From Asterionella formosa (taxonomy: Eukaryota): a stretch of DNA of 51,339 nucleotides. The notes under the pieces are model-generated. The model searched no databases. It had not been told where the DNA came from and was given only the letters and a program-made list of their open reading frames with translations. Positions 12,382 through 44,570 of the stretch are shown in pieces. The translations under genes and the position numbers were made by a program. Numbering within the stretch: the first letter of the stretch is position 1; the number at the start of each line of letters is the position of its first letter. The stretch lies in assembly GCA_002256025.1 (NCBI GenBank), contig NKIB01013797.1, positions 1-51,339 of the forward strand. Direction: 5' to 3'.

Positions 12382-13671
12382 CTAAATGATCATTTGATCC
12401 ATGAGGGATTCTCCCACATCATGTTTGTGTTTCCAAGAAGTCACAGCATTGTGTACATGGGTGATAATGTATGGCTGCTGTAAAAATTCCTTGTACTCCA
12501 CATATTTCATCTCTCGGCAAATACTGGCCCTCGAGAATGCTAATTGACCGAAGATTAGCATAAAGATCACAATAACAAATCGTCCAAGCCACTTTGCAAC
12601 TCTTGGCCGCTGAACCAACCAAACCCACATAAGTTGTAAATCGGGAGACATGCAATTCCAAATCCATCTCATAATGAAATGTCGAACCCATCGCCAAACA
12701 ATCCATGCACTTGCCTTCCAGTTCATGATTACGTCTCCTCCAATTGGGCGTGTGTCCCAGTTTGGACAGGTGCCAGCATTCACATCATCTATCAAAATAT
12801 CTATTTCTTTCAGCTCAACCAGCACCTTGCGCATTTCATCAACACATTCTAAATTGGCGGAAACCTGATATGCTTGCTCTTTGGCCTGGTCCACAAAAGA
12901 TAGTGTTGTTGGTACAAGCGGCGAACATGCGTAAGTCGGTGCAAGCATCTCTAGGCTACTCCAGGATGTCGAGAACATGATCTTTTGGAGAAAAAAAAGT
13001 TCAGTTTCGGTATGTGACACAACAAGGGAGTTCATGGGTAGACAGTCCTTTTGTGATGTCAGTTCGGAGTTTAGAGGTGATTCTTTCCACCAACTCATAA
13101 CTTGCTGCATTTCGTTCGCCGTTTGTTCGGCAAAGCTCGCTTGGAAACTTGATTCGGCTACAGCTTCCTCCAAGGATGCTTGTTTCTCCGTTGATGGATG
13201 AGTCAAACATGTACTTGCTGCTAACTGAGCCTCGGTCCCTTGATCGAAACCAGAAATGGAACCATCGGCGTGATCGTCGAAAGATATTGTCAAACTGCTC
13301 ATATCTCGACGTTGCGATGCAATTGCTAATGATTTCATGGCAGAAGGTAACGGAACCTTTGACTGCATACTCCGAAGTGGCGATGCAATTGCTAATGATT
13401 TCATAGCAGAAGATAAAGGAACCTTTGACTGCTGGAGGGCTAGCTGCATGTCTCGTGCCTGTTGTTCGGCAAAGTCAGCGAGCAGAGTACTCCCTTCTAA
13501 AATCTCGTCGTGTTCAGCGGCATGCGCTAGCTCGTCCAATACTTCCCACCAGCATTCAGGAGGTCCACCACGAAAGGTTCGGTCATCCTCAACCGTCGTT
13601 TCCTCGAGACTTGGGGAGGACGCTTCAGCCGCCCACGAGGGCCACGCATCGTCTGACGATGATTCAATCAT
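12382..13671 (-). CDS. Hypothetical protein with internal repeats and a C-terminal TM segment
   Basis: Long ORF, open from 13803, first ATG at 13671. It has a 22-aa tandem duplication QSKVPL(S/P)SAMKSLAIAS (66-bp period, ~13314-13432), three FAEQ/FVDQ-type helical motifs, and the hydrophobic FVIVIFMLIFGQLAF near the C-terminus. Confidence 0.7.
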   Translation of the reverse strand: MIESSSDDAWPSWAAEASSPSLEETTVEDDRTFRGGPPECWWEVLDELAHAAEHDEILEGSTLLADFAEQQARDMQLALQQSKVPLSSAMKSLAIASPLRSMQSKVPLPSAMKSLAIASQRRDMSSLTISFDDHADGSISGFDQGTEAQLAASTCLTHPSTEKQASLEEAVAESSFQASFAEQTANEMQQVMSWWKESPLNSELTSQKDCLPMNSLVVSHTETELFFLQKIMFSTSWSSLEMLAPTYACSPLVPTTLSFVDQAKEQAYQVSANLECVDEMRKVLVELKEIDILIDDVNAGTCPNWDTRPIGGDVIMNWKASAWIVWRWVRHFIMRWIWNCMSPDLQLMWVWLVQRPRVAKWLGRFVIVIFMLIFGQLAFSRASICREMKYVEYKEFLQQPYIITHVHNAVTSWKHKHDVGESLMDQMII

Positions 13672-14414
13672 GTGGAAGTGATGGATCTGCGTTGAGTCTG
13701 GCGCCTTTTTGTTTTCTTTCTTAGGTATTAATCTTTTGATCAAGGCATCACACTTTTCTTTAGCCGTAGCCTTCTCCTTAGAAAGATCCGCTGCAGCCAA
13801 CAACAGCTAATCCATCAATCAAGAGAGTCACTATTAATGCTAGGTACAAAAAGCTACCACTACCGGTATGTGCGAATCGTTTTCTTGAAATGCATATCGC
13901 TGCAATACGTTATCAACTGATAAATTCATCTCAGAATGCTGATCCCACAACGGCCGTGACGTCAACAAATTTGCGCGAACGCAAGCCGAGGATTGCTACA
14001 CAAATAGCTGGGTGTATACATATTAGTACTTAAGTACAGCATAGAATACATACTGCGAAGGGAATAACCAGGGTGTGCCCCCCACGTGTAGACACCCTGC
14101 GATAATGAGTACCGGTATCTACTATCGCTGGTATACCAGTGAACACCATCTAAATTGGAGTGCAAAAGTGAGTTTGGGAATCATACAACAGCAAAAACGA
14201 TTCAAGCGTCAATGGGTTGTTCACATTCTATTACTACATCAGTAAAAGGTTCATAGGGAGGAAATCAATGATTCTGCCTTACTGTGGTACAATAAAACTG
14301 TGCTTCATTCTCAAAAGAAGAAGGGTTCCTTTAGTTGTTGCAAAAACACCAACATCCGTTTTATTATGAAAACTCATAATTTTGTAGTAGAGGGAATCAA
14401 GGTTTAGATCACCA

Positions 14415-15156
14415 TTAACGGTGGCGGCGAGCACGTAAGCCATGGACTCCGCCATCCAAAGCACCAACAGCAGCTCCAGCCTTGGCTCCATCGGATGCAC
14501 TCATTCCAGGTAAAATGGCCCCAACAATGGCACCCTTGGCAGCTCCACCAGCAGCCCCCACGGCGGCACCTCTAGCAACCTCGTGGTGGTGTTGTTGTGG
14601 TGGTGGTGCTTGTTTCGCTGGGGCAGGCACTGGTGCAGGTGCTAGAATAACGTAGCAGCGTGGAACAGGGCGTGACAGTGGATTTCATTAGTTGGGAGGA
14701 TAGCTAGTATGTTGACAAGAAATTCGAAAGTGACAAATATCCAGCTATCGTACAAACAAAGAATAGATTAGACTTACCAGCCTGGGGTGCCGGATTTTTA
14801 GCCGCGGCCATGGCAGCCTTTTGTGACCCTTGAGCAGCTTGAATGTCAGCAGTTAAAGAGGCAATCTGAGCCTTCAATCCTGCATTCTCCGTTTCCAATT
14901 CCTTCACATGATCTAAAGTTGCTTCAGATGAAGCACACGGTGCGCCACCCTCATTATTCTCGGTTTCCATGCTTCGCACGAGCTTTTTGGCTTGTAGACT
15001 CGACAGGCCTAGATCACTACACAAATCCTCAATCGATAAACTGCAAAGTAAATCGCCGTCAACGTTGTTGTCGCGAAAGAGATGGGCCTTTTCTCCTAAT
15101 CCTATGGCGGTCAGAAAGATACAGACTTCGTCCAAATCGAATTCGCTAACTTTCAT
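14415..15156 (-). CDS. SAM domain-coiled coil-Pro-rich-glycine zipper protein, gene 1 (head A / tail X), two exons, ~201 aa
   Basis: Exon 1 15156-14778; phase-1 intron 14777-14642 (GTAAGT...CTAAT...TTCTAG); exon 2 14641-14415. SAM motif DLDEVCIFLTAIGLGEKAHLFRDNNVDGDLLCSLSIEDLCSDLGLSSLQAKKL; tail GAAVGAAGGAAKGAIVGAILPG...GAKAGAAVGALDGG. Confidence 0.88.
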
Positions 15157-16807
15157 TATATTGCGATGTTCTTGATTGCAGTTACTCTGTTCAAAGTACT
15201 GATATACTAGGTTAGGTTTGTGAAATTTGTGTCAAGTATTGTTCCTTGATTGTTCTTTCAGTGTTTGTATGCACACGGTTCCTCGTTGGTACTTTTGCAC
15301 GTAGAGTCTTCCAATTCTACAGCTAAGTGTATCCGAACTTCGCTGTAAACAAACATTCGCAAAATGGTACTGCTACCGGTATATACATAGCAGCTCCCGA
15401 GTCTTAGAGACCATATAGAAGGAAGAAACGTCGTACCTGGTGTCCGTGATTCCTACACATAACCAATCTTTATTCCATACACCCCTGAACGTTATTCGGA
15501 TCAACTATGTGTTCTGTTTTCTCTATTAAATTCCGACGCATGAAAGAAGAAGGAGTGAATAGTTGACAGTTTGGATACCATTGGAATCGTTGAATAAATC
15601 CAATGGAATGTACTTACCCCCAGATATTGAATCGTTTCAAAATGCAACGAGAAGGTTTAGGAGTGACAGGGACACCTATTAGTGTTCTCACAGATTCATT
15701 TATGCGTCTTGCTATTCGGTCACATAGAGCGACATTAACTTGATGACAGGTAGACTACATGCAGTAACTGTAAATGAGTCAACCAGGATGTTGGAGACTA
15801 TGATGTGTATCACCCCCATTAAACAAAATCTAAGATACTAGTACCTGTGTACGTGGTTTACATAGGATGAGTATGTATACCGGCACCTGCAGAATCCCGG
15901 TACATAGGCATACCGGCACTGCTGTTGCATTTTTGTTGAATAGCACCCGGTACTGCACCATGGCTGCTACATACAGGAAGTTGAAGCAGGCCTTCTCATT
16001 GTAGATCAGTTTATCTCTGAACCGCGAGAATAGAAGAGATACTTGATAGAATATTAAGCATCATAAATAATACGAGTCCTCATACATTCATTCACTTTGC
16101 CAACCACAAACAAGCAGCATGGGATACAAGGAGTTTGCCGACTACAGTGTCCACGAAGTGGTCATTTGGGTCAATGCCATTGGCATGGACGACCGTGCCC
16201 AAGCATTTACTGACAACGATGTCGATGGCAGATTGTTGATCGATTTGACAGACGACGATATGAAAACTGATCTGGGATTTTCGGGACTTCAAGTCAAGAA
16301 GTTTCGACAAAAGCTCAACTTTACTCTCAAACTGACAGCCCCTCGCGGAGGGAATGGTGGAGGCGATGGTGACGCGCGTGTCGTCGAATTGGAGAGCGAG
16401 AATGAAGCACTCAAGAAAGAACTCGCTAACCTTGTCGCCATTAAGGCAGCCCTTCATACCCCAGCACCTGGTAGGTTTACGTTGCATTCAGTGTGATCTT
16501 ATGTTTAATTATCCTGATTTCTAAACGATTAACATGGTCCCTTTCCTCCCTGGCTCAGCACCTGCAGCTCCTGCCCCATCCTCACCAGCGTCAGCTCCTG
16601 CCCCAGCGAAACAAGCACCACCACCACAACAACACCACCACGAGGTTGCTAGAGGTGCCGCCGTGGGGGCTGCTGGTGGAGCTGCCAAGGGTGCCATTGT
16701 TGGGGCCATTTTACCTGGAATGAGTGCATCCGATGGAGCCAAGGCCGGAGCTGCTGTTGGTGCTTTGGATGGCGGAGTCCATGGCTTACGTGCTCGCCGC
16801 CACCGTT
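14417..16807. repeat. Inverted repeat pair 1: arms 14417-14627 and 16597-16807 (211 bp, one mismatch seen)
   Basis: The exon-2 coding sequences of genes 1 and 2 are reverse complements. The only difference noticed is a synonymous GCT/GCC, and identity ends within the stop codon (TAA vs TGA). Confidence 0.9.
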
Positions 16808-16809
16808 GA
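16119..16809 (+). CDS. SAM domain-coiled coil-Pro-rich-glycine zipper protein, gene 2 (head B / tail X), two exons, ~200 aa
   Basis: Exon 1 16119-16470; phase-1 intron 16471-16558 (GTAGGT...CTCAG); exon 2 16559-16809. SAM motif YSVHEVVIWVNAIGMDDRAQAFTDNDVDGRLLIDLTDDDMKTDLGFSGLQVKKF; tail identical to gene 1. Confidence 0.88.
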
Positions 16810-17846
16810 TCGTGGCATGGCAAGCTATCTTGGCCAGAAACCAATGTCCTGAAGAATTCTATTTCTATATCGTTCTCGTTGTTGGCTTCACTTTGTATTG
16901 CAATCTCAGAACAAGTCTCTCTGCGAGCAGGTTAACTTTATTAACTCGTCAATCTTATTACCATCAGGTTTTGGAATACATTTGTTCACAAAAGTAACTC
17001 TCTAGCCTTATCAGAACATGTGTTCCTTCCAATATATTATTGAACCACATTTCTAACACTATTGGAACTGAATTAAAAGTTGTACTTAGAGGGACAACAA
17101 AAAGTTCTCAGGGAGTATTTGAGATTGAATAGCTGGTGCTTGCGTCTGCCAACATCAAAAGATTTAACCTAGTATAGGTGGATTGCCATGCGCGGTCATT
17201 GTATCATGCTGAGAATTACCCACGTCATCAGCAAGCATAATAAATTAAGAATCGATGAATGCTGCTTGAACTGATAATTGATCAGATCAACGCAGGGGAA
17301 TCCTTTATAGCTACCAAACATAAGGCTATAAAATTTGACATCCCAAAAAGTAGCTCCATAATAAATATCGACATTTTGCAATGTTGTTTGGAAGGAATTT
17401 TGGCTTTGTCATTAAAGGGAACACCTTCAAGAAACTACTAGACATTAGTACAATATGTCATTCATTGATTGATTGAGAATTGATTGGTGTAATTTCGATG
17501 AGAACCCTCCATTCTTTGCCCAATGGTTTATCAGAAAAGAGTTTTATGTAAGTGATGGATGCCACTACTAACTCTTCCTTGACAACCACTGACAGCAGCT
17601 TCTGCTTCAGTCGTTTGTTGGTATCAGTCCCTACAACCTATAAAGGGATCACAGAGGTTGAAATTGAATTGTTTACAAGGAAAACACTACAGCAACTAAA
17701 GTAGCATGACCGCAACAAAATGAATGATACATGTTTATTCCAGCCAATCATTTGTAGACTGATCGAGATCCGCTTGGTTTACAATTGATATAAATCCACC
17801 CGTTTACCACTTTTAGTCTATCATAAAACATACAATTTAAAAAGGG

Positions 17847-18589
17847 TTAACGTAGACGTCGGATGCCACCACGAACTCCTCCTTTCAAACCCCCGACAGC
17901 AGCTCCTGCCTTGGCTCCATCTCTTGCACTCATTCCAGGCACAATTGCTCCAACAATAGCTCCCTTGGCAGCTCCACCAGCAGCTCCAAATGCGGCTCCT
18001 TTCACCACACCACCCGCAACCCTTTTGTTTTGTGGTGGTGGAGCAGGTGCATGCGCTGGGGCAGGCGCGGACACGGGAGGAGGTGTGGGTGCCGGGGTAG
18101 GTACGTACACTGGGAAAGCGGATGTAATGAATGAGGGACGAAACGTCAGTTTGTTCACGTTGAGAGGCCAATATAAACACCGACATAAAAGTAGATTGTC
18201 ACTTTGAACAATCTAACATAGTTTGACTTACCGGCCTTGGCTGCTGGCGGATTGTGTTCCGCTTGGATTGCTTGAATGTCCGCAGTGACCGCAACAATCT
18301 GCTTCTTCAGCTCTGCATTTTCAGCTTCCAAATTTCTCATTTTCTGAAGAGTGGCTTCGGATGAGCCGGAGTTTGGAGCTCCAGCATTATTCTCCTCGTC
18401 AATACTGCGCAAGAGCTTCTTGGCTTGCAGAGATGTAAGGCCAAGCTCAGCAGTGTAATCTTCAATCGTCAAGGAGCAAAGCAGGTCTCCATCCACATCA
18501 TTTTCTCGAAAGGGACCAGTCTTTTCCCCAAGACCAATGGCGGTGAGAAAGGTACAGACTTCGTCCAAATCAAATTTATTCACCTTCAT
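17847..18589 (-). CDS. SAM domain-coiled coil-Pro-rich-glycine zipper protein, gene 3 (head A / tail Y), two exons, ~206 aa
   Basis: Exon 1 18589-18232; phase-1 intron 18231-18110 (GTAAGT...CTGAC...TTTCCCAG); exon 2 18109-17847. Head MKVNKFDLDEVCTFLTAIGLGEK... is like gene 1; tail is NKRVAGGVVKGAAFGAAGGAAKGAIVGAIVPG...GLKGGVRGGIRRLR. Confidence 0.88.
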
Positions 18590-19320
18590 TGTATGTTTTG
18601 TGGTTCCTTTGTGGAACTGATCAGAACTGCGATCCTTGGTTTATTGCACATGTTTTTTTGACATTATCTTTATATACCGGTACATGTGTGTGGGTTTTCT
18701 CCTGTCATATCACGTTACATAGTGGATGTCCCAATATATAGTAAGTATATTCATAGGTCACACACAAATTTGATGCATGCGCGCGCGCATCGGTCTATTT
18801 CGGTACCAGGTACCGGTACCTGGAATTGCATTGATATGGACTACGGCAGAGGTCGACGAAAGTTTCTACAAAGCAGGATACTGATACTTTTCCAGAGAGA
18901 GTACCGGTATCAGTATACCAGTGTGCTGTCATCCTACCGTTCACCAAGTACTCCCTCTGGAGGTAACGGTACCAGGTACATATTCCAAATGCATACCATA
19001 CTGCTCTAAAATTTTGCCAGTTCTCCTGGTATTTCCTACCAGGGGAATAAAGCACTGGTCTAGCTTGCCAGTATCCTGCCATGTCGGAAGCTTACAGAAT
19101 ATCCGTCATGCCTTTTAAAGCATTCTTTGAGAGCGAAATCCCTGTTCGTGCTTTGTATGTAGGCTAGCAACACCAAAATGGAAAAATGTAGCTCAGTAAA
19201 ATCAAGTCATCGCTTTTGTTCATAGCTACCGTGCATATACCGAATACCGGTATGCTAGCTGCCATGATTGTTGCTTCAATTAATTACTACCAGTACTCCA
19301 CTCCGGTACCAGTAAAAAAT

Positions 19321-20822
19321 GGCTTTGAGCCACTTCGAACGGCTTTCAGTCACTTAACTGTGTATACATAGATTTTTTCTAATTTTCCAGTTAAGACTAT
19401 AAGGCTTGTGCTTTAGATAATCAGATAAATGTGTTGGAAAAGGGCGATCGGCCCGAAAGTGGCAAAAACAATACTATACCATTGAGCTGGCATCACCCGG
19501 AAATACACATACACATTTATGGAAAACATTTAATCACAGTCATTGGCAGGACATAACTCATCAATTTTTACCCCTGACAACAAATCCAAGTTTAAACATC
19601 TAACTCAAGAAATGCAAGAGAGACTTACTCACCCCAAAGGAAATGCGCCATGCTGAATTTGCTGTTGGAAAGGATGATATTGTTGATCTGGAGTCGAAAT
19701 CTTGGGATGAATCCTTAGCCCATGTTGCTTCAAACCAAAAAGCTGTTGCTGAATGAGGTTGGGGTTCATTGAACTAGAAATTGTTGTTCCATCCGGAAAT
19801 TCCACTGAAAACCCCCGAATCTGCAAACAGAAGCAAACAATAATCAACCAGTCTCTTCCATTCCATCATCCGGACTAAACTTGAGCCAAGGCATCGCTGG
19901 AACCCTTGTTGATCAGGTTGTTGTACAGTATCGCAATCATGAGGACCAATAATAAAAACAGCACAAAGGGTGATTGCAAGCAATAAACAATACAAAGCTG
20001 GTCTTCATGTCACTGCAGGCAGGTACTTCAACTTTTGAAGTGGTCGATGAAGAGCTGAAAAGGAAGCGGCATGCGGAAGAAGTGCAGAGTGAGCGAGAGC
20101 ATAAGAAAATAGATGCACACACAGCACTTGCAAAAAGGTTGATGCAATCAGAACTCAAAACAAACAGTCAACAGAGTGGACAATGCTTGTGCAAATGAAA
20201 ACAATGGCAACATGTGACAAGCAAGCAGGCAATCTTCCATTACCAACAACAAAGCATTACAAGCGAGCAGGCAATCTTCCATTACCAACAACAAAGCAAC
20301 TTCTACTTACCAGATACCATGACACTATGATGTGTAGCGACGCTGCAGTACCAGTTGCAACTGCAATGGCGCCACTTCCTCACCCTTCGGTTGCTCCTAT
20401 TACATGACAAGATATAATGGGAGTCTAAAAATGAGCGATGCAACGACTGCAGCGAAAATATGCGAGGAGTCTTTGATGGAACCAACAAGATAAAATTGAA
20501 GTGACACCATCAGTATAAGAAAGATGCAAATTCTGGCTGCGAAAAAAATGCAAACGATATAATATTTTCTAACCGCCGCTTACAAAAAAACTTCATGTAT
20601 GTTAAAATTTTAATCAATGGTTTGCTTTGAGCCAATTCGGCCGTTTTTGTCACTTTTAAAATGGATAGATCTCAGTAAATATGTTTTCAAATTTAAAAAT
20701 GATCTAATTCTCATGTAGCTTGATGAACCAACTAATATCGTGCAAAAGGGCCAAAGGGGGGATCGATTTTATCATAATTCTAGAATTAGTCGGAAAAAGG
20801 TATAATAACGTGGCTCAAAGCC
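19321..20822. mobile_element. ~1.5-kb non-autonomous TIR DNA transposon (PHIS-like termini)
   Basis: Perfect inverted match AAATGGCTTTGAGCCAC (19317-19333) / GTGGCTCAAAGCCATTT (20810-20826), with AT flanking both GGC...GCC ends. Subterminal inverted match AAAGTGGCAAAAAC / GTTTTTGTCACTTT. No intact ORF inside. Confidence 0.75.
20217..20298. repeat. 42-bp tandem duplication inside the TIR element
   Basis: ACAAGC(A/G)AGCAGGCAATCTTCCATTACCAACAACAAAGCA occurs twice. Confidence 0.85.
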
Positions 20823-21141
20823 ATTTATAACGACTGGTTCCACTGTAATTTTGGTATTTTATTCTATTCCGTATTTAAACTTTGTGTATGCACCATGCAG
20901 TTCAACAAATCCTGCAATAGTAATATGTGTATAAGCAACTGTGGTTCTAGAATGTTCTAAAGCAAAAACACAGCATATCCATGTAGAGCACTTCCTCGGT
21001 TCAGCCATGCATGTATAGTTGCAACCAAACATTAGGTCACTGCTACTCATGAAGCAAGTTCAAGCTCTGAAAATTTCTCTACAGCTAACAGCCCCTCCTA
21101 TTAGAAATTATTCCAATCGACTGGTGCATATAATGTAAGTT

Positions 21142-21214
21142 CTAAGCATTCTAAAAGTAGGTAAATCTAACATTTTTCTGGCGCATTTTTCATAGAATTG
21201 TGTCCCAATTGGAA
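21142..21214 (-). repeat. Dispersed ~72-bp repeat, copy 2
   Basis: Reverse complement aligns with 3581-3651. Confidence 0.8.
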
Positions 21215-22270
21215 TATTTGATTGAGGCTGGTGTAACTTTGGCATAGCATACCAAATTTTTTTTCCAAGGAGGTTGGAAGAAATTTCATTATGCCACTGC
21301 AGCAATAGTTACAATATTCCGCAGATGGGAGAGGAATTATTACACAGAAAGGGTTTGCTACCAATTCAAGTTGAGGCGACAGAACAGGCCATAGATTTTA
21401 CAGTGGCATTCATGAAGGTTAATGGTTGAAATGTGGAGGTTGCTGGAGTGCAGGTGGAGGTGCATGTTGAGGTTGAGGTTCATGACGAAATATTCGATTG
21501 ATTGATTATATTCATTTTATAATGAAGGGGTTTTGGCTACCAGTTCCCTCCTAGCAGCTGCATAGGAACAACAATCTACCTTTCCCGCCTATAGTAGCAT
21601 ATAGAGTGTTTTATTCAATTATTTATACAGTTAGTATATTTCCAGCAATCATGCAATTGACGAAGTCAATCGATTTTTGAAAACTGTTGACAACATTTGG
21701 ATTGAATATTATTGAGAATTATAGTTTGAAATCTAATATTTTTATTTCCTGTTCTGTTTTTTTCTTTATCAGTCAATGTACCACGCTTTCTAGCTGGTTT
21801 GTGTTTTTCGATATTGTCAACAACTATCACATCTAGATTGATTGTTCCTTTTTGACAATGACGTCAAGAGAGGAAAAACTTGCCAATCCAATTTCGTTCA
21901 CTCTTGCATCTCACAGAGACCTCCAAGGAATTTTCCAACAACTCCTGCAGAATGTGTTTGCTTGGCTGTTGATGTCGACACAGTACACCCAACATAAGAA
22001 CAAGCCTGGCCATCCTGCAGTCATCGACGGGAATCATTCATGTACCGGTAGTAATGTATTGAAATAAATTATTACATAAACTTTCACCAGTATAGGAATG
22101 CAAATGTTGCATATTCCGGTAGAAAATGTATATCAGCCAGTATAAATATATATGGATTGGTTTCTTCAATTACACGGTATACGGTATTACATTGGTCCGT
22201 GGGCAGCGATACTTTTCCATGAATTTGCTGACAGCATCATTAATCCTGTCCAATAGGAAGAACAAGCCAA

Positions 22271-23003
22271 ATGGGATACAAGTCATTTGCTGACTATGAT
22301 GTCCACGAAGTCGCCGTTTGGGTCCATGCCATTGGCATGGGGGACCGCGCGCAATCCTTTGTTGATAATGGCGTCGATGGAAAGTTGTTGGTTGATTTGT
22401 CGATCGACGATCTCAAAACAGATCTTGGATTTCCTGGTCTGCACGCCAAAAAGTTTCTCCAAAAGCTTGACTTTGCATTGGAGCTGACTACACCTCGTGG
22501 GGATGGGACTGATGATGCAGAAGCGCTCCTGGCGGAGTTACAGGCCGCCAATGCAGGACTTAAGAAGCAGCTGGATGACCTCAAGTCAATCAAGGCAAAT
22601 CTAATAGGCCCCGCGCAAGGTAAGTTGCTTGGTTTGTCATGATTGAATCGAATCAAATCAAATCAAATTTGATGCTACTAGAAAGTTCTGACCCAGTTCT
22701 TTCTTGCTTTGCTGTTTGTGTTTGCTTGTTTTCCCTCTGTTCACATTAGTGCCTGTCTATCATGCCACTCCTCCCATGTCTGCACCTGCCCCGGCGCATG
22801 CACCTGCTCCACCACCACAAAACAAAAGGGTTGCGGGTGGTGTGGTGAAAGGAGCCGCATTTGGAGCTGCTGGTGGAGCTGCCAAGGGAGCTATTGTTGG
22901 AGCAATTGTGCCTGGAATGAGTGCAAGAGATGGAGCCAAGGCAGGAGCTGCTGTCGGGGGTTTGAAAGGAGGAGTTCGTGGTGGCATCCGACGTCTACGT
23001 TAA
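22271..23003 (+). CDS. SAM domain-coiled coil-Pro-rich-glycine zipper protein, gene 4 (head B / tail Y), two exons, ~200 aa
   Basis: Exon 1 22271-22619; phase-1 intron 22620-22749 (GTAAGT...CTGAC...ATTAG); exon 2 22750-23003. Head MGYKSFADYDVHEVAVWVHAIGMG... is like gene 2; the zipper tail is identical to gene 3. Confidence 0.88.
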
Positions 23004-25195
23004 CCCTTTTTAAATTGTATGTTTTATGATAGACTAAAAGTGGTAAACGGGTGGATTTATATCAATTGTAAACCAAGCGGATCTCGATCAGTCTACAAAT
23101 GATTGGCTGGAATAAACATGTATCATTCATTTTGTTGTGGTCATGCTACTTTAGTTGCTGTAGTGTTTTCCTTGTAAACAATTCAATTTCAACCTCTGTG
23201 ATCCCTTTATAGGTTGTAGGGACTGATACCAACAAACGACTGAAGCAGAAGCTGCTGTCAGTGGTTGTCAAGGAAGAGTTAGTAGTGGCATCCATCACTT
23301 ACATAAACTCTTTTCTGATAAACCATTGGGCAAAGAATGGAGGGTTCTCATCGAAATCACACCAATCAATTCTCAATCAATCAATGAATGACATATTGTA
23401 CTAATGTCTAGTAGTTTCTTGAAAGTATTCCCTTTATTACATGGCAATCTATTGCTTCCTTGCTTGACTGAATCCCAGGCAGCATTGACAAGCCTGAAAA
23501 CCACAGAAGGACAAACCATCATTTTCATTTAAAAAAGTTCGGGTGGATTGGGTGGCTACAATTAATGAAGTGTGCCATTGAGGAAAGGTTGAAACAAGTC
23601 CAGATCAAAAAACCATCTCTTTGTCATGCTGTAGATAAATGGCTCCCCACCTTCTTTTTCTGGGTCCTATTTTGTGCCAGCAACTAGGTCCTCCACATTT
23701 TGGCAGCTGCTGTGTATCAGCAGTTGCAGAACCTATATCGTCTTTATCATCTACAATGTCAGATTTAGTAAGAATAATATCAGCAGTGGTAGCTACTAGA
23801 AGAACCAAAGGTTGATGGCTGAAATTTTTTTTAGCCAGCTAGTTGTACAATCGTCTTTCAACCTTTCCCCCGCCCCCTTTTGGGTGGCATTTTTTTGCTT
23901 TTGGCTGGGAATTTTTTCTTGTAACCCATGTGCAGTCAAAGATGGACTGCCTTGAATCCAATTCACATTTAGAGTGCAGGTCACAAGTTATTTCTTGTTC
24001 CTGTTGCCCTACACCTTGTATAATACAAAACATACTGAATTCATTAACAAGTAATCTGCAGTAAAGGAGTGTCTTTAATCAAAGGCTATGAACCATTGTT
24101 ATTACCAACAAGAAAATCATCAACATGGCTAGTGATTGTTACCCACAGATCATCAGTGTACTACTGGTAGGGGCAGAGTTGCTCACCACTGTCAGCCAGA
24201 ATTATTTGAAGGCATTATTCCTCCAGCAATAGAAAACATCAAGGAGCAACAAAAACAAACATCACTACTATGTCATAAATAATCAGCAACAAGAGAACAT
24301 GGGTTGCTGGGATCATGCATAATTACATGAGTTGAGATAACAGTGATGCCTCCTGCCAAAAATTTGTCCATTTGCATTTGGAATAAAACGGTTTTGTTCT
24401 TGTTGATAAGATGAATACTAATGGAAGAAGAAACCCTTCAATTCACAAAGTAAGTGTATCCTAACTCTGTATCAAATGTGGAAACTTCACATTGATACAC
24501 ATTTTGGAGATACAAAAGAGGTGTACAGTATTAGCTGGCAGCTAATAGGCAACCTGGCAAAGCAGGAGGGCTTACGTACAAATAATTGGGCTGGTGAAGT
24601 ACAAAATTCATCAAAATGGTAGAAACCTTGTATTGCAAGATCAGACATTGTTGAAGTCTGCCGGTAAACATACGAGTTTTCATACATTATTATTTTAGTT
24701 CTCTGACGATGGTCTTATTTCTTCCAATTTATTTTCCTGGACATGACGCACAGACCAAGCATCATATCATACGTAAATCATGTACTACATAATCAGTAAT
24801 GTGAATTTTCTTTGTCTGATTCCTTCTTGAAAGAATAAAATTGAATGGCTCGCACAGCCGCCCCTTCGCTTCTTGTTATATAACGGAACCTCACAACCAT
24901 CTTGCTCTGCATGTTTAAGATTACCTGATGGTACCAAGGTACCAGGGTATCAGTAGTCTACCGGACGGTATAGGTTTGTCATGTATTTAGAAATGATATC
25001 CAATCTACCGGTACATAAAATAGTCTGACTAAACATTCCAATCCAAACATCAGTTTGTTCCATTTCGACGTGTGCTGAGTCGGCGAATCGGAGGGTAGAG
25101 CGTTCTTGAGTGCGAGTGAATGTAAAGTGTTCAATAGCGACATCTGAAGGACAAGGACTCGCTCTACAATACAATACTCATCGTCAGCTGACTGT

Positions 25196-25975
25196 ATGAA
25201 CAAACTCCCGCTTGTCCCGAGACTGTTCCGGCCCAAGGATCTCGTAGCCCCAACCGTTATTTTTGCCACAAACCACCTACTGATCGTGAACAAATCGCCC
25301 GGATGGTTGACTGTTCCGACTGATAAGGGCTGGGATCAAAAGTCCCTAATTCATCGTTTGCAGAATTTGGAACTAGGCGGTGGCAGTAAAAAGGATTGGC
25401 TGACACCCCTCCATCGGATCGACCAGCCCTGTAGCGGCCTGGTGGTCTTGGGGAAAACCACCAAGGCATGTCAACGCATTCAACCTCTTTGGAGAGATGG
25501 AAAGGTGAAAAAGACCTATCTCGTGGTTCTTTCCCAACCTCATGCCCAATCTCATGGTTGGTCCAATCTGGAGGGGCACATGATTATCACAAGCAAGAAG
25601 TCACTAGGTAGCCACAAACAAGCCGTGCAATTCACCAATGAACCATATCCAAATACCAAGCACTGTCAAATGAGATACCGCTCCCTTTCACCCACATTGC
25701 TACAAGTTTCGACGAATCAAGGGGCTCGACACATGGTGCGTGCCTTGTTGCACTTTCATGGATATCGATTGGCGGGGGATTTGCGTTATGGGGCCAATCG
25801 AGCATTGGAAGATCATTCGGTAGCATTGCATGCGTTCTCCATTGTATTTCCGAATGAATTGTCTTTAGGAGACTTGGAACAAAAATACTTTGAAGCTCCG
25901 ATACCAGCAACGTGGGAACAGTATTTCGGGATTACACAAGACCACGTGAATGGTTGGCGCAAAGAAAAACCATAG
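25196..25975 (+). CDS. RluA-family RNA pseudouridine synthase
   Basis: Motif I LLIVNKSPGWL, catalytic motif LHRIDQPCSGLVVLGKT, and NQGARHMVRALL...LAGDLRYG and ALHA motifs. Confidence 0.9.
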   Translation: MNKLPLVPRLFRPKDLVAPTVIFATNHLLIVNKSPGWLTVPTDKGWDQKSLIHRLQNLELGGGSKKDWLTPLHRIDQPCSGLVVLGKTTKACQRIQPLWRDGKVKKTYLVVLSQPHAQSHGWSNLEGHMIITSKKSLGSHKQAVQFTNEPYPNTKHCQMRYRSLSPTLLQVSTNQGARHMVRALLHFHGYRLAGDLRYGANRALEDHSVALHAFSIVFPNELSLGDLEQKYFEAPIPATWEQYFGITQDHVNGWRKEKP

Positions 25976-26998: not shown

Positions 26999-27964
26999 CT
27001 ACTTTGTCGTGAGTTGCTTTTCCAACCAAGCACAAACATCTTGGATTACTTGATTCGTGACTTTGGGCACATCTTGTAGCAGCTGATGACCAGTTGTATC
27101 CACCATAATCAATGTTGCCTTATCCCCGACCTTGTCACAAAACTCTTGCATGGCATCAGCTTTGGTTCGTACATCGAGTCTGGAGTGAATGGCTAAAAAG
27201 GGAACTGGGAATTTGGATGCATGCTCTAAAATATAATCTCCCGCAGATAGCATAGCAGCAACACCGGAGAGGGTTGGAGTTGTTTTAAGGACAACCTTTG
27301 GATCAGCTCGGGCCGTTTGAGCCCACTTCTTATCGCCAAATGCATCATCAAAGGAGGACTCCGTATCCACAGCTGGCATGGCAGTCTTTGGATAATAGTT
27401 GGCAAGCCAGCACAAGACTTTGACCACCCAAGCAGGAGGAAGCAAGCTATCTCCCACCCTCACTAATCCTCCAAGCGAAATAACACCAGAAAGCGTTATA
27501 TTCTGTTCAGGAGCATCGAATGCAGCATTGATCACTTGGGGCGCTCCCCATGATTCACCCAAAAGAAACATGGGCAATGGTTCCTTTGTTATTTCTGCAG
27601 CTTCCAAAGTTGCCCATTCCAAAGCGGCAAATACATCTTCCACCAAATCTTCCATGCAACGGATGTAAGTGCAGTTACGTGGTGATCCAGGCTCCCTGTC
27701 GGAGTATCCGCAATTGACTTGATCGTACGAAGCCACAAGGGCTCCCAATTCAGTTGCAAGGTGCTTCGCGAAGGCATCAAAGTAACCAGAATGCCAGCCA
27801 CTTCCGTGTACCAGCAAAATGAGACATGTCGGCTTGGCGGTGGTGGGTTTCCAAAGTCTCGTTGCAAGATGGGGCCCTCGAGGGGACTCTAACTTATGGT
27901 TGGTGGGAATAGGAGGATTGGGAACAGCGTAGTTTTTCGTATCGACCATCACTGCTGCTGCCAT
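26999..27964 (-). CDS. Alpha/beta hydrolase, monoglyceride lipase/lysophospholipase (Hydrolase_4)-like
   Basis: LLVHGSGWHSGYF, YDQVNCGYSD, nucleophile elbow FLLGESWG, PFLAIHSRLDVRT and catalytic His in TGHQLL. Confidence 0.9.
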   Translation of the reverse strand: MAAAVMVDTKNYAVPNPPIPTNHKLESPRGPHLATRLWKPTTAKPTCLILLVHGSGWHSGYFDAFAKHLATELGALVASYDQVNCGYSDREPGSPRNCTYIRCMEDLVEDVFAALEWATLEAAEITKEPLPMFLLGESWGAPQVINAAFDAPEQNITLSGVISLGGLVRVGDSLLPPAWVVKVLCWLANYYPKTAMPAVDTESSFDDAFGDKKWAQTARADPKVVLKTTPTLSGVAAMLSAGDYILEHASKFPVPFLAIHSRLDVRTKADAMQEFCDKVGDKATLIMVDTTGHQLLQDVPKVTNQVIQDVCAWLEKQLTTK

Positions 27965-28870
27965 GTTGTTTGTTCACTATTATTATGTTATATTTAGTAG
28001 TCGCCGAATTTTCAGCTGGATGATGGTGGTATTTGTGGCCTCTCCCTCCCTTCGCAGAACATAAATAAAATGATGATTTGGCATCATGAAGGTGGTAATC
28101 TTGCGATGAGAACCCTCACTTCTGTATCCATCATCGTCAGCCATCATGACCATGCATCATCACGCCATGATGGCTGCGCGGCTGGAAAGTCCGGTACCTG
28201 GTACCAGGTGTATCATATATTTACAAAGTATAAAACGTATTTTACCGGACCTGTTCATTCTAAAAATAAATCCTCTGCAGAAAAGTAGAGAATTTCGATG
28301 TCAAATCGATGTAGAAGTATCTAGGTATCTACATCAAATATAAAATATCCTTTATGCAGGTACATATGACGGCTTCATCAGTGTTCCTTTCCACGTAAAT
28401 GAATATTGCTAGGAATCTCATAGATACGTACATGTGTACATATATACAGATTGATTCGCAAACCCTGGTACCAGTACCAGTTATTTGTACAGTTGTCTAA
28501 ATACATACGACCGTTATAATTTGCTTCTGTCAACGATTGTTCTTAAATAAAAAGGAATATATAGAAACGCATTCTATCAAAAAGGAATAAATTTGATACA
28601 CGTGGGCAATGTCGACGATTCATAAAACATAATGTCGTCTAAATTGAATACCGGTATACATATGACGAACGATTAGCATGCATGCTGACTCGATCATGAT
28701 AAATACCGGTAATGTAAACATTATTCCGGAACAAATGCACACATGAATATATCATATGTATACCACCGGAATACGGACATAGCATGAACAAATCACAACC
28801 AGTAAATGTATTTATTAGTAATGAAAATTGTTAGCAACGCAGGGTATGAGAAACAAAACCGAATGCAATC

Positions 28871-31246
28871 ATGTCAGACAGCAGCAACATTGTCATATCC
28901 AACAACGATAAAAGTGTGCTGCAGCTCCTTCAAGATGTTTGTGGAGTAACTGAAGCGAGAGCTCAGGAGCTTCTCGAAGCTGGTGGATCCACTGAACGCG
29001 CGATTGATATTTTCTTTAGCCATCAACCGCAAGTTGCGACAGCATCATCTCACCTTGTAGCTTCGAATAAAAAAAGGAAAGAGCGGGATAATATTGCTTC
29101 TAGTAGTAGAAGCAACGATACCAGACCCCACCCAACACTCTTTTTGGACCATTCAAAACGTACGCAGCAACAACAACAACAATCACCTCACGACCCTAGA
29201 CTTGACTATCTGGCTCTGGCAACATGCTTGGCAGAAATGACAGGAACCACCAAGCGTCTTGCCAAACTCTCTACGTTAAAACTGTTTTTTAAACAAACGA
29301 TTGAGGCCGTTGGCGGGATGGGGGTCGGAACTGAAGCATCTCGTGCTCACGATGGGACCTTACTTACCCAGGCGATGTGCCTCCTCTTGGGTTGTCCAGG
29401 AGTTACACTGAATGTCAGTTGGTCAGCCGTGAGCAAAGCGGTCATGACTGTGACGGGAGCGTCATCGACACAACTCAGACAAGCGTATCAAAGCTCGGGA
29501 GATTACGGCGACGCGGCAGCCACTTTCATGAGGAAGCAACGATTGCTGATTACGCCAAGGCCGTGGACGATTGAAGGTGTGTACTCTATCCTGCAAAAAA
29601 TATCCAAATGTGAAGGGAAAAACAGCCAAGCACAACGGCATGCATTAATGGTGAAATTGCTGCAATCTTGTAAAAGTGAAGAAATTCGATTTCTGGTCAG
29701 GACGCTTTTGGGGAACATGCGCCTGGGGGCATCACTCAAGACAGTTTTGACGGGGTTGGCAATGGCAGTAGATGAATTATACGCCGGAACCAATGATACT
29801 GGAACTGCATCTACACATGTACAAGATACCTATGATATGTGTCCTCGAATAGACAAGATTTGTCTAGCTCTATTGGTTGGCGGTATTTTACGGATGAAAC
29901 AGACTTGTGTCCTTGAGGTGGGAACATGTATTAATCCAATGTTGGCCAATCCAGCACATTCTCTTGATGAAATCGAAGCAATAATGTCGAATGGTGGTCC
30001 CATCATTGCAGAATGGAAATATGATGGAGTGCGATGTCAAGCTCATTGGGATGGAACCGAAATGAAGCTCTTTTCTCGACACATGATAGAGAATACAGAG
30101 CAGTTTCCAGATGCCGTCAAATTCTTGTTAGATGCAAAAAATGAAATTGTGACATCATTTATTATTGATGCAGAAATTGTTGGTGTTGATTCTGATGAGA
30201 CGGGATCTACACGTCTGTTACCATTTCAAGACCTTTCCACTCGGAAGGGACCTGCCAAAATGGACAATAATGTTACTATTTGTATTTTTGCTTTTGACCT
30301 CCTCTACCTGAATGGAGATTCATTGATAAAGGTGCCACTTTATGAACGACAAAATTCATTGCGGAATTATTTTTCCAAGGTACAAGGGTTTCAGTTTGCA
30401 TTGGCCATGTCTCTTTGCACGTACGACGAAGTCAAGGTACAAGCATACTTGAAGGACGCCATCCATGGAGGAGCAGAGGGGCTCATGGTCAAACTTTCTG
30501 GTTTACCCACAGAAAAGGCATGTCCATTGACTTGTCATTATGAGTCTGGGGTACGATCACACACGTGGCTGAAGGTCAAACGGGACTATATTGCAGGATT
30601 TTCTGATACCATTGATGTTGTTCCAATTGGAGCTTGGTATGGAAGTGGTCGCAAAGCCGAACGTAACTTTCTTTCGCCCGTCTTGCTGGCAGTGTACGAC
30701 GACGAGGAGGAAGTTTACAAGAGCATCAGTCGCTGCATGACGTTTACAGATGCAATGTACGAGTCAACGCGAGAATTTTATTTGCGAGGCACACCGTATC
30801 CTACGGGCACTGAAATCGTGGAAGGACTGAGCAATGTAACAACTGTCAACGATGATGACGAATCTGTTAGTGATGAATGTGACAAAATCCCATCTCGATC
30901 ATCGAACCAAGAAGACCCCAGCACATTTGACTGTAACGATCGAGTGAATTGTTACCTAAACAAGCCGAACGCTTTACTAGTGACAAACGAATGTCCACCA
31001 ATTTGGTTCAAACCATTGGAAGTGTGGGAGGTGTCATATGCCGACCTATCGCTTAGCAATCAACACACGGCTGCTCAGGGCCTTGTTGACCCAGTTCGGG
31101 GCGTGGCACTTCGTTTTCCTCGATTCAAACGGCGTCGACCAGATAAGGGAGTGGACCAGGCAACAACCTGCCAACAAATTTTGGAGTTATTTGCAAAACA
31201 GAGCAAGATTGCAAATAGTTCAAGCAGACTATATCAAAATAGTTGA
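28871..31246 (+). CDS. ATP-dependent DNA ligase I-like protein with an N-terminal UBA-like domain
   Basis: Motifs I EWKYDGVR, III IIDAEIV, IIIa FAFDLLYLNG, IV EGLMVK, V WLKVKRDY and VI LRFPRFKRRRPDK. DNA-binding-domain motif EIRFLVRTLLGNMRLG. N-terminal LQDVCGVTEARAQELLEAGGSTERAIDIFF is UBA-like. Confidence 0.93.
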   Translation: MSDSSNIVISNNDKSVLQLLQDVCGVTEARAQELLEAGGSTERAIDIFFSHQPQVATASSHLVASNKKRKERDNIASSSRSNDTRPHPTLFLDHSKRTQQQQQQSPHDPRLDYLALATCLAEMTGTTKRLAKLSTLKLFFKQTIEAVGGMGVGTEASRAHDGTLLTQAMCLLLGCPGVTLNVSWSAVSKAVMTVTGASSTQLRQAYQSSGDYGDAAATFMRKQRLLITPRPWTIEGVYSILQKISKCEGKNSQAQRHALMVKLLQSCKSEEIRFLVRTLLGNMRLGASLKTVLTGLAMAVDELYAGTNDTGTASTHVQDTYDMCPRIDKICLALLVGGILRMKQTCVLEVGTCINPMLANPAHSLDEIEAIMSNGGPIIAEWKYDGVRCQAHWDGTEMKLFSRHMIENTEQFPDAVKFLLDAKNEIVTSFIIDAEIVGVDSDETGSTRLLPFQDLSTRKGPAKMDNNVTICIFAFDLLYLNGDSLIKVPLYERQNSLRNYFSKVQGFQFALAMSLCTYDEVKVQAYLKDAIHGGAEGLMVKLSGLPTEKACPLTCHYESGVRSHTWLKVKRDYIAGFSDTIDVVPIGAWYGSGRKAERNFLSPVLLAVYDDEEEVYKSISRCMTFTDAMYESTREFYLRGTPYPTGTEIVEGLSNVTTVNDDDESVSDECDKIPSRSSNQEDPSTFDCNDRVNCYLNKPNALLVTNECPPIWFKPLEVWEVSYADLSLSNQHTAAQGLVDPVRGVALRFPRFKRRRPDKGVDQATTCQQILELFAKQSKIANSSSRLYQNS

Positions 31247-39605: not shown

Positions 39606-40005
39606 GGGGAATAGCTTAGTTGATTGAGCATGCTGCCATTGATCTGAAGATGTGTGGTTTGATTCCCGCAATCTTTTTTAGAAGCAAGCAATTATTGGGT
39701 TCAATTCTCACACTCCTCACCATCCCGTGCAGTCTTCCCTGGTGTTCAAGGAAAAGTTGGTTGGGGGGGGGGGGGGGGGGGGGCGGGGGGGGGGCGGGGC
39801 GGGGGGGGGGCGGGGNNNNNNNNNNTCCCCCCCCCAAGGTACAAGCCGCAGCTTGTCCCGCCTTCCTAGGTTGTCAGAGTTTCCCCTAATGGTGCAGATA
39901 AGATGACCACTTCTTGTGAAAGATGATTGTTGGGGACTCACCCACACTATTAAACTACTACTAGGGAAGCACAAGGTCCTGTCAGAAGGCTGTGCTATGA
40001 AATTC
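39606..40005 (+). mobile_element. tRNA-derived SINE-like / structured repeat, copy 2 (CpG-decayed, contains an assembly gap)
   Basis: GGGGAATAGCTTAGTTGATTGAGCA...GCCATTGATCTGAAGATGTGTGGTTTGATTCCCGCAATCTTTTTT...GCAGCTTGTCCCGCCTTCCTAGG...GAGTTTCCCCTAA...GGGAAGCACAAGGTC, colinear with 2529-2215. Confidence 0.75.
39816..39825. other. Assembly gap (10 N) between a long G-run and a C-run
   Basis: N10 flanked by the G-rich tract 39763-39815 and C9 at 39827-39835. Confidence 0.98.
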
Positions 40006-43337: not shown

Positions 43338-43517
43338 TACACATTAGTATCAAATGAGGATTCAAAACAAAACGAATGTTGTTTATTCATGTGCTGATGA
43401 TGAGATCCGAAAAGCATCAGCACCACGCCGGGCATCATTATCAGTTCGCATTGAGTCGGACGTCGCCGTTGTTTTCCATCTCATACATTCTCCCAAGTCA
43501 CCACTATAATCATCGCA

Positions 43518-44570
43518 ATGGCGATAGAATCCGAACTAGTTAAGGAGGACCCATGGGCAACCGACAGCGACGACGAGCCCTTGACAGTTGCTAACGAGTT
43601 GTCCGGCGAGGCGCTGTCCGCACTCCTCGAGTTTCAACAAACGGGTGGCTTTGAGGACATGCCACCGTCTATCATTGATAAGAACGCCGTTTGTGCCACT
43701 TTCACACCTGGAGATTCCAAAATGATTGCTGCTACCTACCGAAGATTGCAAGGCAAGGCTGACGAAGCGGCGAAGAAGCACACCGAGGCCTTGCTGCATC
43801 GAACCGTTTTGGATTTGCAAGTCACTCATGCCAGGGACAGCGTCGATGTGATGATGCGTGAGGGGGTGGTGAGACTTGACAATGTCTTGTCTCCGGAACT
43901 GTGTGATGCATGTCTCGAAGGTATAAACAGAGACTTTTTAATGGCAGATACAGAGCGAATCTCGGATGGAACGAACCAGCCCTGCGATGGGTTTGGCAAC
44001 GTCTTTAGCAGAACAAATCGCTACGACATGTACTTGAAGAATCAGGGCGTCTACCAAGACGCACTCCATCAAATGTTAGAATCAACAAGTTCTCTAGGAG
44101 CGCTCTACGCGGCTCTAGTCGGACCTGACCACCCTGGCATTTTCCATGAATGTTCCTCGCTCATTTCGGATCCAGGGTCCGCCAGTCAGCCCATTCACCC
44201 TGACAGTACCTATTTTGCGGTCGCACCCATGTGGACATGTTTCGTGGCACTTCAAGACGTGACAGCATCCATGGGGCCAACCATTATGCTACCACAAACA
44301 CATTCGTTCTCTAGTCACGAAGATTTGAAAGACCCCGAACGAAGAAATCACCTATTGGCGCAGTGCGAATATCGACGGTCGGTCCTTAACAAGGGAGACT
44401 GTGCCGTCATGGACTCGAGATGTTTCCATTTTGGAGACGCCAATACAAGTTCCACTAGGCGGGTTCTATTCTATTTCACTATTCGAAATCCAGCACACCA
44501 GGGAGATTATCCGTTATGTGGGAGCTTGTACCCTGACATGAGTGAATTGACAATTGGAAATTTTTCGTAA
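43518..44570 (+). CDS. Phytanoyl-CoA dioxygenase (PhyH) family protein
   Basis: REGVVRLDNVLS, SDPGSASQPIHPD (HxD), FVALQDVTASMGPTIMLPQTH and KGDCAVMDSRCFHFGDANTSSTRRVLFY. Confidence 0.9.
   Translation: MAIESELVKEDPWATDSDDEPLTVANELSGEALSALLEFQQTGGFEDMPPSIIDKNAVCATFTPGDSKMIAATYRRLQGKADEAAKKHTEALLHRTVLDLQVTHARDSVDVMMREGVVRLDNVLSPELCDACLEGINRDFLMADTERISDGTNQPCDGFGNVFSRTNRYDMYLKNQGVYQDALHQMLESTSSLGALYAALVGPDHPGIFHECSSLISDPGSASQPIHPDSTYFAVAPMWTCFVALQDVTASMGPTIMLPQTHSFSSHEDLKDPERRNHLLAQCEYRRSVLNKGDCAVMDSRCFHFGDANTSSTRRVLFYFTIRNPAHQGDYPLCGSLYPDMSELTIGNFS

Follow-up and report, generated by a model that had tools for sequence, protein, structure and literature searches.

Within-pair gene conversion of glycine-zipper tails in a cluster of two divergent SAM-domain gene pairs from the diatom Asterionella formosa

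In Caenorhabditis elegans, the head-to-head gene pair hsp16-1/hsp16-48 has been duplicated into a second module and is reported to be kept identical by gene conversion (PMC3966223). For the CEACAM family, a concerted evolution limited to particular domains is described, in which the choice of exons is argued to be set by selection (PMC7042247), and in sex-chromosome palindromes arm-to-arm conversion is reported to keep the inverted repeats >99% identical (PMC3723533, PMC8981503). Here, we describe a cluster from the diatom Asterionella formosa, located on contig NKIB01013797.1 of assembly GCA_002256025.1, in which four two-exon genes (g1 to g4) lie within 14415..23436 in the order <-, ->, <-, -> and encode proteins of 200–206 aa with a SAM domain, a coiled coil, a proline linker, and a C-terminal glycine zipper. 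All coordinates refer to the whole 51,339-nt stretch that was analyzed, hereafter the window. The part encoded by exon 1 (the head) is of type A in g1 and g3 (A1 and A3) and of type B in g2 and g4 (B2 and B4), and the glycine-zipper part of exon 2 (the tail) is of type X in g1 and g2 (pair 1) and of type Y in g3 and g4 (pair 2). The tails have been homogenized within each pair by interlocus (non-allelic) gene conversion, and not by conservation at the protein level, next to heads that are old paralogs.

The DNA of exon 2 was 97% identical between g1 and g2 and 95% identical between g3 and g4, against 74–78% between X and Y. The glycine-zipper parts of exon 2 form the outer ends of each pair, where they lie as an inverted repeat, and the partners differ over the first ~6–14 codons of exon 2, which lie in the proline linker, identity beginning at 14624/16600 (pair 1) and 18068/22782 (pair 2). 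A first-pass annotation of this DNA had called the tails identical within each pair, which applies in near-identical form to the zipper part and does not extend to the first codons of exon 2; the differences that it listed between X and Y (MSASD/MSARD and ALDGGVHG/GLKGGVRG) are present. Over the last 58 codons, the synonymous divergence (dS) between g1 and g2 was 0.02, with a single synonymous difference in 47.7 sites, and that between g3 and g4 was 0, with no difference in 51 sites, the nonsynonymous divergence (dN) being 0 in both comparisons. Between X and Y, dS reached 0.83 (proportion of synonymous differences, pS, 0.5) and dN 0.22, with a dN/dS of 0.27. Taking the X versus Y pS of 0.5 as the level allowed by protein constraint alone, the probability of finding one difference or fewer at ~48 synonymous sites is ~2e-13, which excludes chance.

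The inverted repeat that contains tail X comprises 215 nt (arms 14410..14624 and 16600..16814) and exhibits 3 differences, of which one is synonymous, one falls in the stop codon (TAA vs TGA), and one lies just past the stop, where the similarity ends abruptly. The repeat that contains tail Y comprises 656 aligned positions (arms 17413..18068 and 22782..23436) with 7 differences, divided between 222 nt of coding sequence (2 differences) and 434 nt of 3' flank (5 differences), and ~290 nt of this flank lie past the polyA site of g3 (17702) and hence outside the mRNA. The repeat borders are sharp, with unrelated sequence outside, and on the upstream side they fall in the proline-linker part of exon 2. 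The identity thus covers synonymous sites and untranscribed flank, which purifying selection on the protein cannot keep, and interlocus gene conversion is the process to which we ascribe it. An inversion of the segment between the repeats is possible. For repeat Y we also considered a transposon origin, which was dropped because its arms begin inside a functional exon.

The heads carry a different history. The exon-1 proteins were 63% identical between A1 and A3, 62% between B2 and B4, and 34–42% between A and B; over the SAM columns alone, the within-type identities rose to 72% and 71%, respectively, close to the ~73–75% previously counted by eye. A maximum likelihood tree of ~115 head residues, built on 30 hand-chosen rows out of 250 proteins (the A and B relatives and 17 other family members), placed A1 and A3 with the database proteins P0138 and P0143 in one clade (support 97/98) and B2 and B4 with P0163, P0209, and P0120 in another (support 100/99), and an approximately unbiased (AU) test rejected a clade of A1 and B2 (p 0.0004). 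This 30-row tree was used in place of a SAM-only tree of 122 rows, which was poorly resolved. Inside the two clades, A3 joins P0138 and P0143 (92/81) and B4 joins P0209 (92/75), a grouping which suggests that the duplication of the pair predates the splits among the source organisms of P0138, P0143, and P0209. The heads compared between pairs (A1/A3 and B2/B4) have a dS of 1.46–1.52 and a dN of 0.26–0.29 (dN/dS 0.18–0.19), and those compared within pairs are saturated at synonymous sites (pS 0.68–0.76) with a dN of 0.61–0.69. The A and B heads are therefore old paralogs, and the tandem duplication of the A+B pair is ancient (head dS ~1.5). Both the duplication of an ancestral divergent A+B pair and the conflicting genealogies of the two exons had been proposed at first pass, and they are borne out by the head clades and by the grouping of the tails by pair. 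The existence of all four head/tail combinations, together with these conflicting genealogies, follows from the homogenization of the tails inside each pair by conversion. The locus hence combines identity at synonymous and non-coding positions beside saturated heads with sharp borders and conflicting segment genealogies, which are among the signs by which conversion is recognized.

On these grounds, we regard as likely an account in which two divergent A/B pairs had their tails homogenized within the pair by conversion, the tail identity being mainly a mechanical by-product. Pair 1 would have undergone long-running conversion, with its flanks eroded and the tract confined to constrained coding sequence, and in pair 2 a more recent copy event would also have carried 434 nt of 3' flank. 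The same repeats might instead record two one-off events, with neither long-term concerted evolution nor any functional meaning, exon 2 having been overwritten once and recently in each pair, for example during break repair from the inverted copy. The pair-2 tract with its unique 3' flank is what one recent event would leave if one of its ends fell beyond the old homology, and the very small number of differences in both repeats and the absence of a rise in GC content at third codon positions (GC3) are also in keeping with it. However, this explanation calls for two independent recent events in neighboring pairs, plus similar tail sharing in other lineages, and in pair 1 the tract coincides precisely with the constrained coding part, as would fit repeated conversion with eroding flanks, so that we consider it decidedly unlikely.

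The exon and intron models behind these comparisons were built on the letters of the window and agree with the number, the orientation, and the phase-1 intron at the module border given for the four genes in the first-pass annotation. All four introns are of the GT-AG type, in phase 1, and placed at the border between the coiled coil and the linker. On the minus strand, g1 (201 aa) has its exon 1, with SAM and a short coiled coil, at 14778..15156 (SAM_2 33.8 bits, SAM_1 29.3 bits), a 136-nt intron at 14642..14777, and at 14415..14641 an exon 2 that encodes the proline linker and tail X and ends in TAA (Gly-zipper_OmpA E 2.6e-5, under the curated cut-off). The 962 nt that separate the start codons of the divergent g1 and g2 (15157..16118) presumably act as a shared promoter region. 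On the plus strand, g2 (200 aa) has its SAM and coiled-coil exon at 16119..16470, an 88-nt intron at 16471..16558, and, according to the gene model, the Pfam scan, and the repeat alignment, an exon 2 with a longer proline linker and tail X at 16559..16809, ending in TGA. In pair 2, g3 (minus strand, 206 aa) consists of exon 1 with SAM and coiled coil at 18232..18589 (also found by the Pfam scan), a 122-nt intron at 18110..18231, and exon 2 with linker and tail Y at 17847..18109; its 3' untranslated region (UTR) of ~145 nt occupies 17702..17846, and a contig of X5, a polyA library, terminates in a loose T run at 17702, which places the polyA site near that position. The fourth gene, g4 (plus strand, 200 aa), has exon 1 with SAM and coiled coil at 22271..22619, a 130-nt intron at 22620..22749, and exon 2 with linker and tail Y at 22750..23003, the second exons of g3 and g4 being supported by both gene model and Pfam scan. 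A tblastn search with all eight exon translations detected just these four copies in the 51-kb window.

The start codons of g3 and g4 are 3681 nt apart, as opposed to the 962 nt of pair 1, and a comparison of the inter-head spacers of both pairs found no detectable similarity and no common promoter sequence. Inside the pair-2 spacer, a region at 19457-20460 (plus strand) is transcribed, with RNA contigs in 3–4 runs and a loose polyA run at 20458; it harbors a 42-nt tandem duplicate at 20217-20298, has no open frame longer than ~100 codons, and may represent a small-protein or non-coding gene that widened this spacer.

Transcript support came from assembled contigs of four public RNA runs, drawn from three studies and mapped onto positions 14000-23600, whose depths are not usable for expression ranking. 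The introns of g1, g2, and g3 were precisely skipped in 4/4 runs and that of g4 in 3/4, with no joint in X6, so that the splice junctions proposed from the letters alone stand up to RNA. Among the proteins predicted from short contigs, P0246 equals the g1 model and joins A1 to X, P0004 equals the g2 model and joins B2 to X, and P0010, which equals the g4 model except for one residue, joins B4 to Y, as does P0162. No full-length g3 protein was found among the database proteins, and the g3 junction is carried by spliced contigs that pass from the A3 head through the g3-specific linker into tail Y. These joints bear directly on the possibility that the identical exon-2 copies are artefacts of repeat collapse or misjoining during assembly. 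Misassembly classically arises at short repeats that are nearly identical, and there is one run of N in the window (39816-39825). However, this run lies 16 kb from the cluster, independent RNA contigs or proteins show the connection of each head with its tail, an 837-nt contig from a polyA library extends over the head of g1, tail X, and the 3' UTR proper to this gene, and the stop codons differ between the X arms. An assembly artefact is accordingly extremely improbable.

The RNA contigs also carry variation. Record 22 of X6 (14613-14787) is unspliced across the g1 intron and differs from the window by 5 substitutions and 1 insertion; it may derive from genomic DNA or from a retained intron of another strain. 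Strain variants located in the tails (X6: 14463, 14511, and 22828) are not assignable to both partners, as the contigs break at the repeats. The protein P0248 is a natural A1 variant with one substitution in tail X (..EVARS.. for ..EVARG..), and B2 proteins with this change were not seen among the proteins at hand; the change is a possible candidate paralogous variant for watching conversion in populations.

The domain analysis supports a SAM head and points to a glycine-zipper tail in all four proteins. Every exon-1 translation passed the cut-off of SAM_2 (PF07647; 26.8–37.2 bits vs 20.5), and three of the four were also above the cut-off of SAM_1 (PF00536). The family profile matched the solved SAM chains of liprin-beta, SARM1/TIR-1, and polyhomeotic (E 6e-13 to 4e-6), and no match to solved chains in the PDB was obtained with it for the tail. 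An AlphaFold2 model of P0004, which used 33 family sequences, has in its SAM region helices 11-20, 24-32, 37-42, 45-50, and 56-73 with a predicted local distance difference test (pLDDT) of ~95–97, corresponding to a five-helix bundle, followed by a confident helix (84-112), a disordered proline linker (113-147), and two C-terminal helices (148-168 and 174-199) predicted at low confidence (pLDDT 50–65). All four exon-2 translations matched Gly-zipper_OmpA and Gly-zipper_YMGG with E values of 2.6e-5 to 0.012, under the curated cut-offs (PF13436, 20.3–24.4 bits vs 27; PF13441, 15.7–22.6 bits vs 28.9), and the precomputed Pfam labels of P0004 and many of its relatives include PF13441 or PF13436. 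Glycines recur every four residues, and G154, G158, G162, and G166, as well as G177, G181, G185, G189, and G193, are invariant across 33 aligned members. The maximal Kyte-Doolittle hydropathy over 19 residues (1.5–1.56) is borderline for a membrane helix. A search of the ESM Atlas returned no usable match.

These features extend well beyond the cluster. At a threshold of E ≤ 1e-3, a HMMER search with the relative P0003 retrieved 315 representative proteins; at E ≤ 1e-10, the number of representative clusters was 136. Many of the matches are ~200 aa long and covered end to end. A profile search retrieved 92 proteins at the stricter of these thresholds. Where these carry an organism name, it is in all cases that of a diatom, the named members coming from Fragilaria crotonensis, Skeletonema marinoi, Fistulifera solaris, Cyclostephanos tholiformis, Conticribra weissflogii, Thalassiosira sp., Synedropsis, and Grammatophora. 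The source annotation of the named members reads "hypothetical protein" or "SAM domain" only, family transcripts appear in environmental RNA assemblies, and a literature search for SAM-glycine-zipper proteins in diatoms, which covered few subscription journals, found nothing. Judging from the sequences gathered, the succession of SAM, short coiled coil, proline-rich linker, and C-terminal glycine-zipper hairpin is the architecture of the family as a whole and not peculiar to this cluster. The tails occur in two subtypes, with a ..ILPGM.. turn or a ..IAGDAG.. turn.

The position of the phase-1 intron seems to be conserved in A- and B-type orthologs, since the predictions of the relatives break just past the same ..G codon; this is the case of P0120, P0138, P0143, P0209, and P0155-P0163, which are exon-1-only or read-through predictions. 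Additionally, several features of the family predictions were recorded in their own right. The tail of P0120 is read in the wrong frame, and in P0021, P0127, P0128, P0068, P0009, and others unrelated sequence is read right after ..KGAIG/KGAVG, which looks like an unrecognized second intron inside the zipper in other diatoms; g1 to g4 have no intron there. In P0006 and P0016, two tandem SAM domains precede an acidic linker, the copy number of the head thus varying in the family.

The tails of other lineages were compared over a fixed window of 54 protein residues, and difference counts and unique motifs were used in place of a tail tree. Within the cluster, A1 and B2 as well as A3 and B4 differ at 0 of 54 positions, in agreement with the earlier proposal of a private matching tail in each pair, and the cluster tails differ from those of other lineages at 12–17. 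There were 2 differences between P0189, an A-like protein of Fragilaria crotonensis, and P0237, a B-type one; among 250 proteins the ending GGVRGLRRRLG was found in these two only, and GAATGG was restricted to P0039 (A-like) and P0042 (B-type). Homogenization of A and B tails hence seems to recur in other lineages, given that the A and B head clades both span lineages while the tails follow the lineage or the partner and not the type of head. The expectation that tails would group by pair elsewhere is thus supported to a limited extent by these protein tails, those of P0039 and P0042 matching less tightly. With 0, 0, and 2 differences inside presumed pairs against 12–17 across lineages, the tails are also in keeping with paralogs of one genome resembling each other more than orthologs of different species do.

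A number of observations weigh against the account of pair-wise conversion with tail identity as a by-product. The matching is not always tight, as P0039 and P0042 have 9 differences over the 54 positions, and the protein tail tree (28 rows, 60 columns) was mostly unresolved, with X and Y not being sisters. P0237 with P0189, and P0039 with P0042, are each assumed to come from one genome, the recurrence being read from protein tails, and among related genomic loci, for which a scan with the full-length alignment matched 594 stretches and one with the A-head alignment 144, 0 were confirmed. Moreover, the mark of GC-biased conversion was absent, the GC3 of the tails (0.28–0.43) not being raised over that of the heads (0.44–0.52). 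The g2 and g3 tails are also inverted and 1037 nt apart, yet they are 83% identical, and because they stay distinct while being near and inverted, proximity alone does not explain why conversion is specific to the pair. With four copies, a 2+2 partition that falls within the pairs has odds of 1 in 3 by chance. Finally, co-assembly, membrane association, and co-regulation of the pair are putative, the tail helices being modeled at low confidence (pLDDT 50–65) and the maximal hydropathy being no more than 1.5–1.56.

A functional reading, raised at first pass, is that the tails may serve as a pairing barcode: selection would keep the tails of a pair identical and the pairs distinct, A1 assembling only with B2 and A3 only with B4, and conversion would be the tool. 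Both pairs are matched, and X and Y are still apart (dS 0.83) despite the inverted and closely spaced g2 and g3 tails. The identical tract of pair 1 corresponds to the coding tail and ends at the stop codon, P0189 and P0237, from elsewhere, have a private tail ending in common, and X and Y are distinguished by charged sites next to the zipper. On the other hand, the tract of pair 2 spans 434 nt of non-coding flank, so that its identity needs no selection at the protein level, and the X/Y dN/dS of 0.27 gives no sign of diversifying selection. By our own count, the zipper core differs at just 5 of 41 positions, all of them family-variable sites. The chance partition of four copies, the 9 differences between P0039 and P0042, and the lack of a GC3 rise that would mark long biased conversion count against the barcode as well. 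Since synonymous sites and 3' flank are also identical, tail identity by itself does not show selection for a barcode, and we consider this explanation unlikely.

Returning to the by-product account, both genes of a pair would probably be expressed together, with the shared spacer as promoter region, and, in the manner of many SAM proteins, A and B would probably co-assemble by means of their SAM/coiled-coil heads, which would allow the identical glycine-zipper hairpins to pack as one homotypic bundle at a membrane. Tail identity would be tolerated or mildly favored, since the tail is under strong purifying selection family-wide, and a by-product with such a possible mild benefit appears probable to us. 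A complex prediction of the A1 head with the B2 head (score 0.16, mark 0.34) weighs neither way. A more far-reaching proposal, to which we attach a low probability, is that A and B are obligate partners in a membrane assembly with a glycine-zipper ring or pore that requires its helices to be identical, and that selection has recruited conversion to keep them so. If this were true, two insulated complexes with private tails would amount to a genetically encoded matching for paralogous hetero-oligomers, and the system would recur across pennate diatoms and represent a membrane effector or scaffold of a new, SAM-driven type.

Irrespective of such roles, the cluster offers a clean natural case of conversion acting on part of one domain-coding exon while the remainder of the gene diverges, and whole-protein trees or ortholog calls in the SAM-glycine-zipper family would mislead. 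The analysis also brings out an unstudied family of SAM, coiled-coil, and glycine-zipper proteins whose named members are all from diatoms. If the matched tails prove to be selected, they would provide a simple system for examining how paralogous complexes avoid cross-assembly.

In the surroundings of the cluster, an open frame running off the window end at 3-1007 (minus strand), ~13 kb from the cluster, contains a DDE_Tnp_4 transposase domain (E 2.9e-23), and we take it to be a PIF/Harbinger-type transposon. Open reading frames (ORFs) of housekeeping type at 5557-7290, 25148-25975, 26999-27973, 28850-31246, 43455-44570, and 46640-47692 carry BT1 transporter, pseudouridine synthase, alpha/beta hydrolase, ATP-dependent DNA ligase, PhyH dioxygenase, and Mpv17/PMP22 domains, with no suggested functional link to the cluster. 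The 474-codon frame adjoining g1 (12382-13806, minus strand) had no Pfam match at E ≤ 1e-5.

Among systems with which the cluster can be compared at the protein level, the fungal NWD2/HET-S-type NLR-effector pairs consist of neighboring genes with a short matched terminal sequence, an amyloid motif, proposed for specific partner recognition, and the first-pass annotation had likened the diatom pairs to them. This likeness was not sustained: the diatom pair has no NLR, no HeLo domain, and no amyloid-type repeat or motif, both partners have the same architecture, and the region that they share is predicted to be helical. In the four genes, Pfam detected SAM and glycine zipper only, with no match to a HeLo domain, and an NTPase of the NACHT or NB-ARC type was found neither in them nor in a scan of 14 large ORFs of the window. 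The SAM domains of SARM1/TIR-1, liprin-beta, and polyhomeotic form rings or polymers; their profile is like that of the diatom heads, for which oligomerization is only putative, and none of these proteins has a glycine-zipper tail. The tails resemble the bacterial glycine zippers (Gly-zipper_OmpA/YMGG), which are reported to include membrane segments of the toxins TelE and Tde1, in their repeated small-residue pattern of the GxxxG type (Pfam E 3e-5 to 5e-4). The diatom matches, however, lie under the curated cut-offs and belong to a eukaryotic protein of cytosolic type without secretion context.

Regarding the evolutionary process, the cluster resembles hsp16 in layout, where a small divergent pair has likewise become a 2x2 cluster with inverted repeats a few hundred to a few thousand bases apart, and where near-100% identity is put down to conversion and not to recent duplication (PMC3966223). 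Conversion there is described between modules and over whole genes, whereas in the diatom cluster it takes place within the module, covers part of the last exon, and leaves the modules distinct. As in CEACAM, conversion homogenizes some exons of neighboring paralogs while other exons keep separate histories, although that case, as reported, concerns animal Ig-domain receptors with conversion among many paralogs and has neither head-to-head pairs nor a common C-terminal membrane segment. The sex-chromosome palindromes share with the cluster the arrangement of inverted repeats around a spacer and the intrachromosomal conversion; as reported, their arms span kilobases to megabases, include whole genes, and are subject to GC bias, in contrast to the diatom arms of 215 and 656 nt, which begin inside an exon and in which GC3 is not raised. 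The evolutionary mechanism is thus already known, and what differs in the diatom cluster is its action within the pair, on part of one exon, between genes with old paralogous heads.

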